Assembly (NCBI GenBank): GCA_017531845.1 | Contig: JAFXKI010000003.1 | Coordinates: 160,354-200,353 of the forward strand | DNA from: Opitutales bacterium | Lineage (GTDB): Bacteria; Verrucomicrobiota; Verrucomicrobiia; Opitutales; UBA953 | Direction of reading: 5' to 3' | DNA length: 40,000 nt | In this document: piece after piece, positions 1-40,000 of the stretch | Layout: each line of letters begins with the position of its first letter | Numbering within the stretch: the stretch's first letter is position 1 | The notes under the pieces: generated by a model | Database searches by the model: none | What the model saw: only the letters and a program-made list of their open reading frames with translations | What the model was told of the DNA's origin: nothing | Made by a program: the position numbers and the translations under genes

Positions 1-1561
1 AATCGCCTTCAAACGCGAGAATGTGCGTCGCGACGCGGTCGAGGAACCAGCGGTCGTGCGTGATGACAACGGCGCAACCCGCGAACGCGTTGAGTGCGTC
101 TTCGAGCGCGCGAATTGTGTTCACGTCGAGGTCGTTCGTCGGTTCGTCCAAAAGCAAAACGTTCGCTCCGCTTTTGAGCATACGCGCGAGGTGAACGCGG
201 TTGCGCTCGCCGCCGGAAAGTGAGCCGACGAGCTTTTGCTGTTCCGCGCCCGTAAAGCCGAAACGCGCCGCGTATTGACGCGCGGGAACGCGCAATTTTC
301 CGAGCTCGACGATTTCGTTCCCGTCGGAAATGACTTCCCAGAGCTGCTTGGAATTGTCGAGCGCATCTCGCGATTGGTCAACGTAGGCGAGCTTGACGGT
401 TTCGCCGAGCGTGAGCGTTCCCGCGTCGGGTTTTTCCGCGCCCGTAATCATTTTAAAAAGCGTGGTTTTCCCGGCGCCGTTCGGTCCGATGATGCCGACA
501 ATGCCGCCGGCGGGAAGCGTAAAATTCACATTGTCGAGCAAAAGCCTGTCGCCGAAACCTTTCGTGAGATTTTTTGCAACGAGCACCTTTTCGCCGAGGC
601 GCGGTCCGGCGGGAATGAAAATTTCCATCGTTTTTTCCTGCTCGCGTTCGTCCTGCGCGAGCATCGCCTCGTAGGCGCGGAGTCGCGCTTTGTTTTTCGC
701 GAGACGCCCGCTCGGCGAAGTCGCCGCCCATTGGCGTTCCCGCTCCATGGTTTTCCGGCGCGCGGAGGCAACTTTTTCCTCGGCGGCGAGGCGTTTTTCC
801 TTTTGCTCAAGCCAAGAAGAATAATTGCCCTTCCACGGGATGCCGTAGCCGCGGTCGATTTCGAGAATCCAGCCGGCGACGTTGTCGAGAAAATAACGGT
901 CGTGCGTGATGGCGATCACCGTGCCCTTGTATTGGTGCAGGTGGCGTTCGAGCCAATCGATGGTTTCCGCGTCGAGGTGGTTGGTCGGCTCGTCGAGAAG
1001 CAGAATATCCGGCTCTTTCAGGAGCAGGCGGCAGAGCGCAACGCGGCGTTTTTCCCCTCCGGAAAGGTTCGCGGCGAGCGCATTTTCGTCCGGACAACGA
1101 AGCGCGTCCATCGCCATTTCGATGCGAGAATCGAGATCCCACGCGCCGGAAGCGTCGAGTTTTTCCTGGATTTCGCCTTGGCGATTGAGAATTTTTTCCT
1201 GCTCGGCGGGATCGTCGGTTTCGCCGAGCTGAATGAAAGTTTCATCGTAATCTTCGAGGAGTTTGCGCGTTTCCGCAACGCCCTCTTCGACGCATTCGCG
1301 CACGGTTTTCGCGGGATCGAGCTGCGGTTCCTGCTCAAGGTAGCCGATCGTGTAGCCGGGAACGCAGGAAATATCGCCTTCGTATTGCTTATCGACGCCC
1401 GCCATGATGCGCAAAAGCGTGGATTTGCCCGAACCGTTCAGCCCGAGTACGCCGATTTTTGCGCCGTAAAAATACGAGAGCGAAATGTCTTTGAGAATCG
1501 GCTTTTTCTCGAATCCCTTCGAGAGCCGCGACATCGTGTAAATGATTTTTTCCTCTGCCAT
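1..1561 (-). CDS. ettA: Energy-dependent translational throttle protein EttA (ABC-F ATPase); C-terminal part runs off the window edge
   Basis: Absent from the ORF track because it has no stop in the window. Reverse-strand translation from the ATG at 1561-1559 gives MAEEKIIYTMSRLSKGF...GLNGSGKSTLLRIMAG (Walker A), LSGGEKRRVALCRLL, LLLDEPTNHLD. A second cassette follows: GPNGAGKTTLFKMITG, LSGGERNRVHLARML, LLLDEPTNDLD, ITHDRWFLDRVATHIL. It is collinear with E. coli EttA/YjjK. The 474-aa plus-strand ORF 236-1660 is its antisense shadow. Confidence 0.9.
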   Translation of the reverse strand, partial: MAEEKIIYTMSRLSKGFEKKPILKDISLSYFYGAKIGVLGLNGSGKSTLLRIMAGVDKQYEGDISCVPGYTIGYLEQEPQLDPAKTVRECVEEGVAETRKLLEDYDETFIQLGETDDPAEQEKILNRQGEIQEKLDASGAWDLDSRIEMAMDALRCPDENALAANLSGGEKRRVALCRLLLKEPDILLLDEPTNHLDAETIDWLERHLHQYKGTVIAITHDRYFLDNVAGWILEIDRGYGIPWKGNYSSWLEQKEKRLAAEEKVASARRKTMERERQWAATSPSGRLAKNKARLRAYEAMLAQDEREQEKTMEIFIPAGPRLGEKVLVAKNLTKGFGDRLLLDNVNFTLPAGGIVGIIGPNGAGKTTLFKMITGAEKPDAGTLTLGETVKLAYVDQSRDALDNSKQLWEVISDGNEIVELGKLRVPARQYAARFGFTGAEQQKLVGSLSGGERNRVHLARMLKSGANVLLLDEPTNDLDVNTIRALEDALNAFAGCAVVITHDRWFLDRVATHILAFEGD

Positions 1562-1747
1562 TTTGAAAAAGCTGATGTTTCCATTTATCGCCGAAAACCC
1601 CGCGAAACGCAACACCGGGAAGCCGACGGGAACGCAAAGCCGCAGAAGCTTTTGTTTTAACCACGGAATACGCGGAAATACACGGATTTGTTTTCGACTC
1701 AACGAACAGAGATTTTTTAACGAAAAAAAAATCTCCGTTTCTAATTT

Positions 1748-39514: not shown

Positions 39515-39532
39515 ACGGATTTTGCGGAATAC

Positions 39533-40000
39533 TCAATCCCGATTTATCCAAAGCGAGCTCGAAAGCGGCGGAAGTGTAAGGATATTGCCGGAAAAACCGA
39601 AACCGTCTTCAGCGGGAACGCCGTCCGCATCGAATGTTTCGGAGGTTGCCACACAGCGGAATCCGGAGAAACGCGCCTCGGGAATTTGCACCTGCGCGGG
39701 AACGGTACGCGGGTTCAGCGTCAGAATATACTGCAAGCGTCCCTGTGCATGATTGTCGTTATAAACGGCGACAACGGCGGTATTTGTCTGGTCCGGATAG
39801 AAACGGAAAAAACCTTTGGAAACATTTGTGCGTTGGCGGAAAAGCCGTCCGTCCGGAGAAAGCCGGAACCGAATCCACGCGGAGACAAAATCCTGCGTTC
39901 CCGCGAATTTTTTCATGCGCGCGTAATCGAGGGCATTTTCCTCTCCGTCAAGATAGGTATTGTTTTTTCCGTGCTTTGTACGCAGAAAATCCTGCCCTTC
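39533..40000 (-). CDS. Hypothetical protein, C-terminal part only (the ORF stays open to the window edge)
   Basis: The track lists 39533-39916 from an internal Met. Upstream codons remain open in frame to position 40000 (...EGQDFLRTKHGKNNTYLDGEENALDYARMKKFAG...), so the gene probably starts outside the window. Confidence 0.55.
   Translation of the reverse strand, partial: EGQDFLRTKHGKNNTYLDGEENALDYARMKKFAGTQDFVSAWIRFRLSPDGRLFRQRTNVSKGFFRFYPDQTNTAVVAVYNDNHAQGRLQYILTLNPRTVPAQVQIPEARFSGFRCVATSETFDADGVPAEDGFGFSGNILTLPPLSSSLWINRD

Follow-up and report, generated by a model that had tools for sequence, protein, structure and literature searches.

Sequence-specific recognition of conspecific DNA is established only in the Neisseriaceae and the Pasteurellaceae and has recently been proposed for the HIP1 words of cyanobacteria. 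In the Neisseriaceae, the DNA uptake sequence (DUS) is a 10-12-mer, e.g. AT-GCCGTCTGAA, which is bound by the minor pilin ComP, and in the Pasteurellaceae, the uptake signal sequence (USS) has a 9-mer core, AAGTGCGGT or ACAAGCGGT, with AT-rich flanks. Both occur at a density of about one copy per kb. About half of the DUS and USS copies and most of their inverted pairs are located in transcription terminators (bioRxiv 10.1101/2025.10.24.684340), and the rarity of DUS in acquired islands can be used to spot foreign DNA (PMC7371117). HIP1 (GCGATCGC) is a perfectly palindromic octamer with cognate orphan methyltransferases, which is mostly intragenic, occurs in all frames with up to more than one copy per gene, is over-represented 15-300-fold (PMC5861425), and is conserved between genomes above control motifs and rare in acquired genes (PMC3497702); its function was long a puzzle and is now proposed to be transformation-related. 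Here we describe an asymmetric octamer, CGGGAACG, which is hyper-abundant in a 40-kb window of an Opitutales bacterium (the whole stretch of DNA analysed, 40,000 nucleotides; assembly GCA_017531845.1, contig JAFXKI010000003.1, positions 160,354 to 200,353) and throughout one clade of this order, and we compare it with the words described above.

An asymmetric octamer in all frames and both orientations

The initial annotation of the window had tallied about 108 copies of the 7-mer GGGAACG or its complement CGTTCCC, 17 of them in 1-4030, and the exact counts (47 and 61, and again 17) are identical. The 7-mer had also been described as nearly always preceded and often followed by C. In fact, C precedes it in 101 of 108 cases, so that the true unit is the 8-mer CGGGAACG, and C directly follows 64 of the 101 copies of this 8-mer. 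The reverse complement is CGTTCCCG; the word is thus non-palindromic, with a symmetry limited to the terminal CG dinucleotides. The copies are located as follows:

Starts of CGGGAACG, + strand (44): 283, 1357, 1627, 1867, 2845, 3043, 3367, 3919, 3964, 4878, 5156, 5335, 5655, 6015, 7930, 8053, 8613, 9765, 9908, 11063, 11613, 11619, 11697, 12692, 13307, 13398, 15047, 15359, 16303, 17514, 17565, 18862, 20492, 25057, 25883, 26764, 29804, 35999, 36325, 38311, 39082, 39253, 39613, 39697
Starts of CGTTCCCG in + coordinates, i.e. the word on the - strand (57): 316, 416, 735, 1876, 2383, 2743, 3421, 3502, 5678, 6322, 6353, 6816, 7397, 7405, 7693, 8425, 9010, 9364, 9508, 13166, 13929, 14538, 14910, 16156, 16498, 17140, 17157, 17323, 17482, 18225, 18318, 18540, 19465, 20127, 20442, 25379, 27233, 28225, 29827, 29992, 30082, 32538, 34894, 34962, 35822, 36090, 36188, 36441, 36802, 36922, 37050, 37504, 37624, 38081, 38194, 39245, 39896

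CGGGAACG tops the 8-mer ranking of the window, in which the best 8-mer without overlap to it reaches 31 copies. Expectations were derived from Markov models of orders 0-3 and from codon-aware shuffles; the maximal-order Markov model was dropped, since the nested sub-words themselves consist of CGGGAACG and make it uninformative. The models of orders 0, 1, 2, and 3 predict 1.3, 3.5, 4.8, and 8.4 copies, respectively, which corresponds to an enrichment between 12-fold (order 3) and 78-fold (order 0). Within coding sequences (CDS), which contain 86 of the 101 copies (85%), shuffling of synonymous codons within genes leaves 8.8±2.6 copies (maximum 18) and codon permutation 2.3±1.5. The CDS copies occupy all six frame and orientation classes (sense 30/20/7, antisense 23/4/2) and encode peptides such as xGNx, xGT, RER, xVPx, RSR, and xFP, and the 15 intergenic copies are found in about 5 kb, a density at least equal to that in coding DNA. 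Together with the copies in intergenic DNA and in either orientation, the shuffling results confirm the earlier view that the word is a genome-wide signature at the level of DNA and not a codon effect.

In a logo of the 101 sites, the eight core positions are sharp, followed in strength by a weak G at position -1 (54%) and a weak C at +8 (63%), and the flanks are random outside positions -1 to +8, AT-rich flanks being absent. In relatives of the same clade (see below) the left flank is stronger: 57-89% of the copies have G at -1, and 43-57% have C at -2; weak extra preferences thus extend the word to (C)(G)CGGGAACG(C). One-mismatch variants number 129 in 40 kb, about four times the uniform-random expectation, with 0-17 copies for each variant. 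Among the commonest are G to A at position 3 and C to T at position 6, and variation within the word is lowest at its two terminal CpGs.

Among pairs of copies 60 bp or less apart, 8 are inverted and 6 direct. The following arrangements were noted:

7397..7412, - strand: two abutting direct copies, intergenic (CGTTCCCGCGTTCCCG)
11613..11626, + strand: two overlapping direct copies, intergenic (CGGGAACGGGAACG)
39245..39260: inverted pair without spacer within ilvD, which yields the 16-bp palindrome CGTTCCCGCGGGAACG
5655..5685: inverted pair CGGGAACG-15 nt-CGTTCCCG, intergenic, downstream of a Fic gene, with an A-run but no T-run after the pair
17482..17521: inverted pair CGTTCCCG-24 nt-CGGGAACG, intergenic between two - strand genes, with an A-run before and TTTT after the pair

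Only the last two inverted pairs (5655/5678 and 17482/17514) are intergenic. The A-run in place of a T-run after the first is not compatible with a canonical intrinsic terminator for the + strand gene, whereas the A-run before and TTTT after the second make it terminator-like, and it is the sole pair of copies in the window with a plausible terminator shape. The strongest terminator-like hairpins of 1-20 kb lack CGGGAACG, and a search of the window for a long inverted-pair pattern found none. The frequent inverted pairs at terminators that had been reported for the window are therefore not borne out.

Distribution, saturation, and retention in one Opitutales clade

The bacterium is known solely from metagenome assemblies. 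Contigs from several metagenome samples (L001-L006) match the window at 100% identity, among them one of 488 kb (ENA ERZ27256852:k141_430230), and this identity left no within-species polymorphism to compare. The LeuB protein encoded in the window groups with those of Opitutales (Verrucomicrobiota), and the word was counted in the DNA around LeuB orthologues at graded distance, closer relatives being obtained by protein search and contig look-ups:

L087: LeuB identity 97%, 2.5 copies per kb
L088: LeuB identity 90%, 4.5 copies per kb
L089: LeuB identity 87%, 5.8 copies per kb
L090: LeuB identity 86%, 4.2 copies per kb
L091 (metagenome-assembled genome, NCBI GCA_024697185.1): LeuB identity 83%, 4.6 copies per kb
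L092: LeuB identity 81%, 5.1 copies per kb
L095: LeuB identity 80%, 3.9 copies per kb
L093 and L094: LeuB identity 75% and 74%, 0.13 and 0 copies per kb

All eight lineages with a LeuB identity of at least 80% contain 2.5-5.8 copies per kb, i.e. one per 170-400 bp, at a GC content of 0.48-0.60, and their loci share almost no gene order. At a LeuB identity of 76% or less, the density does not exceed 0.6 copies per kb and is mostly below 0.15; about 20 further Opitutae loci and 60 loci of other phyla likewise reach at most 0.6 copies per kb. High density on one side and low density on the other side of this step mark the word as a trait that belongs to a single, sharply delimited clade.

A metagenome scan revealed further clade-like contigs (L461, L468, L397, and L377), and within the clade, lineage-specific secondary variants were found, namely CGGGATCG in L091 and CGGGAGCG in L089 and L090. 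The same scan revealed a chromosomal contig encoding IF-2 and NusA, which originates from a sample of a short-beaked echidna (L422; X285_Short_beaked_Echidna__coassemble_668, 1-11649) and in which four related, dispersed words of the CGRRAWCG type are nearly equal in number: CGGGAACG (20), CGGAAACG (19), CGGAATCG (15), and CGAAAACG (13); CGAAATCG is present in 13 copies as well. The terminal CpGs are the part shared by these words. If L422 is related to the clade, the word may be present there in a form that is relaxed or in the process of shifting; with this reservation for L422, the variants of the different lineages hint at dialects. As a separate observation, a contig of an uncultured Helicobacter sp. 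(L032; NZ_CALVDZ010000001.1, 1-21077) contains different over-abundant words, TAGATTCT and AGATTCTA, with the near-relatives TAGAATCT and AGAATCTA, which are dispersed over 21 kb in about 14-23 copies each and often occur as CTAGATTCTAAAC.

The extent to which the clade uses the word was assessed by means of opportunities, defined as peptide contexts that can encode it through synonymous codon choice. In the core genes of the window, 85 of 101 opportunities encode the word. For the eight clade loci the proportion is 467 of 631 (74%), compared to 9 of 448 (2%) for 18 outgroup Opitutae loci. Moreover, compatible contexts occur in the clade at 16.1 per 1000 codons, 3.5 times the frequency in outgroup Opitutae (4.65 per 1000; other phyla 3.5 per 1000), and hence the amino-acid sequences have been shifted to accommodate the word. 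Three copies within leuB, seen in a codon alignment of LeuB, illustrate how this occurred:

6816..6823, - strand: copy encoding R-E-R (CGGGAACGC) in a variable R-x-R loop
6353..6360, - strand: copy encoding A-G-T, present in 6 of 7 clade orthologues; in outgroups, the residues are EGI or GGT and their codons do not form the word
6322..6329, - strand: copy encoding G-G-N-A, present in 3 of 7 clade orthologues; the others and the outgroups have GGAS, GGAP, GGKA, or GGQA

In the R-x-R loop, two other clade species carry the word in the opposite orientation, CGTTCCCGC, which encodes R-S-R, and two more carry the latter shifted by two codons, whereas outgroups have R-A-R or R-R; the replacements in the clade are A to E or A to S. 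This pattern indicates that the word arises in place by substitution, repeatedly and in either orientation. The LeuB protein called in L089 has a 58-codon N-terminal extension (10001-10174) which is present in no orthologue and contains four copies of the word; its start codon is probably mis-called and the stretch intergenic.

For an analysis of maintenance, 11 orthologous genes were aligned by codon and species were compared in eight directed pairs, using 8-mers of the same gene and phase and of matched GC content as controls. In seven comparisons, 44-82% of the word sites were identical in the orthologue, and in the eighth 29%, compared to 10-25% of the control 8-mers (13% in the eighth comparison; z = 1.8-7.7). 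Word sites are thus retained between species 2-5 times more often than matched 8-mers. Those that are not conserved usually differ at several bases, which points to retention plus turnover and not to slow decay.

Word-free islands and mobile DNA

The word is unevenly distributed along the window, which can be divided into five segments:

1..20500: core (native) segment, 68 copies, 3.3 per kb; ABC-F ATPase, Sel1-repeat protein, Fic, LeuB, GH20, PanD, LpxK, TPR protein, GmhA, GH16, and others
20501..24913: word-free defence island of low GC content (0.42-0.46), 0 copies
24914..30200: intermediate segment, 10 copies, 1.9 per kb; cas1, cas2, lipoprotein-like open reading frames (ORFs), Mrr-type nuclease
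30201..34893: second depleted segment of low GC content (0.38-0.45), 1 copy of the 8-mer
34894..40000: core segment, 22 copies, 4.3 per kb; purA, Mur ligase, ilvD, tRNA-His

The initial annotation had noticed the lack of copies between 20.5 and 24.9 kb and their scarcity at about 30.4-33.7 kb, and both depleted regions are confirmed by the counts for the second and fourth segment. At core density, the probability of finding no copy in 20500-24913 is about 5e-7 (Poisson). This island encodes RexB (21278-21727) and RexA (21642-22598), both identified by Pfam and PADLOC, and an HsdR_N-like protein (22721-23815), and the second depleted segment encodes an ankyrin plus Schlafen/AlbA_2 protein (32261-33673) and two ORFs without family matches (30153-31145 and 31459-32292). 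A type IV-like nuclease with HARE-HTH and Mrr_cat domains (28856-29860) is located in the intermediate segment. Taken as a whole, the defence island spans 20836-24749 and 28856-33673 and contains several ORFs without a family match. In the island genes, only 1 of 9 opportunities (about 11%) is used, as opposed to 85 of 101 in the core genes, and the proposal that the word distinguishes native from acquired DNA has therefore gained in substance, the empty stretches being occupied by defence genes. The genes cas1 (24953-25834) and cas2 (25825-26130) stand alone, no effector gene being present in the window, and repeat searches found no CRISPR array in it; unlike the adjoining island, the two genes carry three copies of the word, which suggests long residence.

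Three further observations concern the genes for tRNA-His, purA, and panD. The tRNA-His gene (GTG; 39403-39479), located between ilvD and the last partial ORF, does not contain the word. A 536-codon open frame (34072-35682, + strand) without family match is antisense to purA, the - strand frame 34078-35613 encoding adenylosuccinate synthetase, and a similar overlap exists at panD (9931-10332 on the - strand, 9934-10350 on the + strand). The long antisense ORFs at purA and panD are not genes.

With respect to mobile DNA, viral contigs were scanned three times for pairs of the word, and the matches were mostly due to chance or tandem repeats. However, two viral contigs have CGGGAACG as their top 8-mer in dispersed copies. 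The first one, L244 (IMGVR_UViG_3300019837_000032, 1-11357, 11.4 kb), contains 18 dispersed copies (1.6 per kb), uses 54% of the opportunities, shows the G preference of the clade at position -1, and encodes a phage-like structural module of unusual gene order, comprising large terminase, portal, tape measure, baseplate, and tail proteins. The second one, L341 (IMGVR_UViG_3300033074_000371), contains 8 copies in 6.7 kb and uses 44% of the opportunities. In its use of the word, clade-associated phage-like DNA is thus intermediate between the islands (about 11%) and the chromosome (74%).

Many other matches in viral and metagenome contigs were rejected as unrelated. In L171 (4291-4622), L213 (1271-1548), L163 (2797-3002), and L140 (3288-3637), the word occurs by chance in 18-nt tandem repeats (about GGCGTTCCCGCAGACCTC), which probably represent a repetitive coding region. 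Arrays of the palindrome CGTTCCCGCGGGAACG in L450 (499-860), L466 (3567-3890), L458 (3302-3530), and L369 (1-350), metagenome contigs with a GC content of 0.61-0.70 in which the repeats follow each other every 31-44 bp with some longer gaps, are unrelated pattern matches; the window contains this 16-mer a single time, at 39245-39260. An apparent dialect, CGGGAACCGT, in L364 (5547-5770) and L465 (1446-1670) is a local iteron-like array and not a genome-wide word: (G/T)CGGGAACCGT is repeated there 10-12 times over about 250 bp, immediately downstream of a gene for a Toprim plus AAA_25 primase-helicase-like protein. The two contigs are 88% identical, one of them also encoding NrdD, and the array is probably the replication origin of a mobile element; its likeness to the word may be a coincidence.

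What keeps the word in place

The word is subject to a strong directional force, which targets double-stranded DNA and the word as a whole, on either strand, in any frame, and inside or outside genes. Throughout one Opitutales clade this force has been at work and continues to be so, and it does not reach newly acquired DNA. The nature of the force is what we infer from comparison. Since all eight positions are held, only processes that favour whole word-carrying alleles come into question, i.e. biased transmission or direct selection. DUS, USS, and HIP1 have all been linked, or are now proposed to be linked, to transformation (PMC3630211; PMC3868556; bioRxiv 10.1101/2024.09.10.611283; 10.64898/2026.06.24.733823), and a transformation-linked recognition word is for this reason ranked first. 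A pattern of this kind is otherwise known only from the words by which some bacteria recognise DNA of their own kind during uptake. We tentatively favour the explanation that CGGGAACG is a lineage-specific hyper-abundant word of the DUS/USS/HIP1 class which is kept by biased transmission of conspecific DNA; a cis function selected inside the cell follows as less likely, a repair bias as improbable, and packaging into particles as more improbable still. In the mechanism that we tentatively favour, a sequence-specific protein of the clade would favour word-bearing double-stranded DNA during natural transformation, either by binding or uptake at the cell surface or by processing or recombination just after entry. 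Alleles containing the word would be passed between cells more often than alleles lacking it, and this biased transmission, a form of molecular drive, would push the word to fixation wherever the sequence tolerates it.

Compared with the described words, CGGGAACG resembles DUS in being short and non-palindromic. Both are hyper-abundant in either orientation, extend through a whole clade with variants in its lineages, are found in several frames within genes, are scarce in acquired islands, and were created in place by point substitutions. CGGGAACG differs from DUS by its unrelated sequence without a CTG core, by the 8-mer length of its core, by its density (2.5-5.8 instead of about 1 per kb), by an intragenic location of 85% of the copies without terminator association, and by its occurrence in a different phylum. 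With USS it shares a non-palindromic, orientation-neutral, hyper-abundant core, a measurable effect on protein sequences, and the enrichment of one-mismatch variants; on the other hand, it has no similarity to the 9-mer cores, no AT-rich tracts, no terminator bias, a higher density, and a spacing that is not more even than random. The DUS/USS likeness pointed out in the initial annotation is thus the best available analogy as far as the non-palindromic, clade-shared, orientation-neutral, and proteome-distorting nature of the word is concerned, whereas the terminator association does not hold. In distribution HIP1, which had not been considered before, is the closer analogue, being an octamer that is mostly intragenic, occurs in all frames, reaches more than one copy per gene, is strongly over-represented (15-300-fold, compared to 12-78-fold for CGGGAACG), is conserved between genomes above control motifs, and is rare in acquired genes. 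Unlike HIP1, CGGGAACG is asymmetric, occurs in a different phylum, and is not accompanied by a methyltransferase gene in the window. HIP1 has a periodicity of 10-90 kb along the chromosome; in the 40-kb window, the short-range spacing of CGGGAACG is Poisson-like. In view of its unrelated, non-palindromic sequence, the lack of terminator association, and the other phylum, CGGGAACG is a member of neither the DUS, the USS, nor the HIP1 family. Full-text literature searches for the word returned the string in primers only, and they yielded no account of uptake sequences in Verrucomicrobia or Opitutales; searches with the accession numbers were equally without result.

Several points weigh against a transformation-linked word. 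The literature searched contains no uptake, transformation, or competence data for the clade or for Opitutales. A motif scan of about 0.24 Mb of clade DNA, a sample of only a few per cent of one genome that carries little weight, gave no signatures of pilin, PilB/PilT, DprA, or ComEC (a prepilin peptidase is present in L089 and L090), and the same scan found no usable seed in outgroup loci. The word is 3-6 times denser than DUS or USS. Only 15% of the copies are intergenic and at most one pair is terminator-like, in contrast to the terminator location of about half of the DUS and USS copies. The spacing is Poisson-like in nine segments (coefficient of variation (CV) 0.83-1.16, none significantly different from random placement; in 1..20500, the CV is 0.83 compared to 0.98±0.11 for random placement), so that it shows no short-range regularity and does not exceed random placement in evenness. 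The presence of the word in structural genes of phages is more easily explained by an intracellular process, unless the phage-like DNA is a long-resident prophage. Finally, every result at the sequence level is equally expected if direct selection for another cis function keeps the word.

A cis-acting chromosomal site of this kind, read inside the cell and favoured because its copies aid protection, repair, or packing of the DNA, is a less probable alternative. Candidates are a methylation-type 'self' mark, an orientation-independent nuclease attenuator or recombination stimulator, and the binding site of an abundant nucleoid protein. The retention of word sites well above matched controls is the argument that Xu et al. 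used for selection on HIP1 (PMC5861425), the terminal CpGs, which are least variable and common to the L422 variants, are as expected for the site of a protein or methyltransferase, the intermediate density in phage-like contigs looks as if resident DNA benefits, and newly acquired islands lack the word. However, a genome would contain about 10,000 copies or more, each of which could contribute only a tiny benefit, and yet amino-acid choice is overridden; the spacing is irregular, the window encodes neither a methyltransferase nor a candidate reader, and polarity, a property of most nuclease-control sites, is absent.

A neutral by-product of sequence-specific mutation or repair, for example a very-short-patch-type correction tied to a methyltransferase that converts near-cognate sequences to the word, is an improbable source of the pattern. 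The abundance of one-mismatch variants would fit a flux between near-cognates and cognates, and coding, non-coding, and phage-like DNA are affected alike. Known repair biases, however, act on one base of a site, whereas here all eight are held; the transition variants at positions 3 and 6 are among the commonest instead of being specifically depleted, and the defence island has remained word-free. Conservation 2-5 times that of matched controls was moreover read by Xu et al. as evidence against replenishment by biased repair (PMC5861425).

The word could also be a pac-like packaging-initiation signal of a domesticated phage or gene-transfer agent, so that transfer would occur via particles, but this we consider quite unlikely. 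The drive would work in the same way as with biased uptake, and the structural module of L244 has the word as its top 8-mer with G at -1; only the word, however, ties L244 to the genome of the window, and one copy per 200-400 bp is far denser than a packaging signal needs. Gene-transfer agents are not known to package DNA with a sequence preference.

Polar motifs of chromosome architecture, such as Chi (e.g. GCTGGTGG in E. coli) and the FtsK-orienting polar sequences (KOPS), which are strongly co-oriented with replication, are only modestly enriched, and had been offered as an alternative in the initial annotation, are hardly tenable as an explanation. Like CGGGAACG, they are asymmetric 8-mers which are over-represented in core DNA and rare in islands or other mobile DNA. 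In contrast to them, the word shows no polarity in any of the eight clade loci (15-40 kb samples), the +/- counts being 44:57, 23:14, 28:25, 45:65, 42:46, 37:31, 37:45, and 11:19 (none with P<0.05) and the ratio of sense to antisense copies 257:229, and its enrichment over low-order Markov models is 12-78-fold, much more than the few-fold enrichment of Chi. Codon, codon-pair, or dipeptide bias as the source of the word can practically be dismissed, and so can its origin as part of a longer dispersed repeat (of the repetitive extragenic palindrome or miniature inverted-repeat transposable element type) or as a small hairpin element: although the frames are used unequally and GCG-GGAA-CGC is formally compatible with a GNRA loop on a stem of 3 bp, the shuffles and the intergenic density speak against the former, and against the latter stand the end of all flank information one position out on each side, the lack of covariation of flanking positions in 569 sites (P = 0.24-0.59), the intragenic location of most copies, and tandem-repeat and repeat searches that found nothing of that kind.

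Irrespective of these explanations, the word can be used now as a barcode that assigns metagenomic contigs to the clade, flags foreign DNA such as defence islands, and picks out prophages, and the 74% saturation together with the 3.5-fold shift of the proteome makes it an unusually clean case for tests of drive versus selection. If it has a function in uptake or processing, its inclusion in constructs could make uncultured or hard-to-engineer Verrucomicrobiota transformable. It is conceivable, although somewhat less so than the general explanation favoured above, that an uncultured, probably host-associated clade of Opitutales independently evolved a recognition word for genetic exchange of conspecific DNA, which would have no known precedent outside Proteobacteria and Cyanobacteria, would surpass all known words in density, with one copy per 170-400 bp, and whose biased transmission would fill about three quarters of the synonymous opportunities and triple the compatible peptides. 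If this is true, a fourth unrelated word in a third phylum would mean that genomic 'watermarks' evolve repeatedly and reach much higher densities than thought, and gene flow in a lineage without cultured members could be followed with the word as a simple sequence marker.

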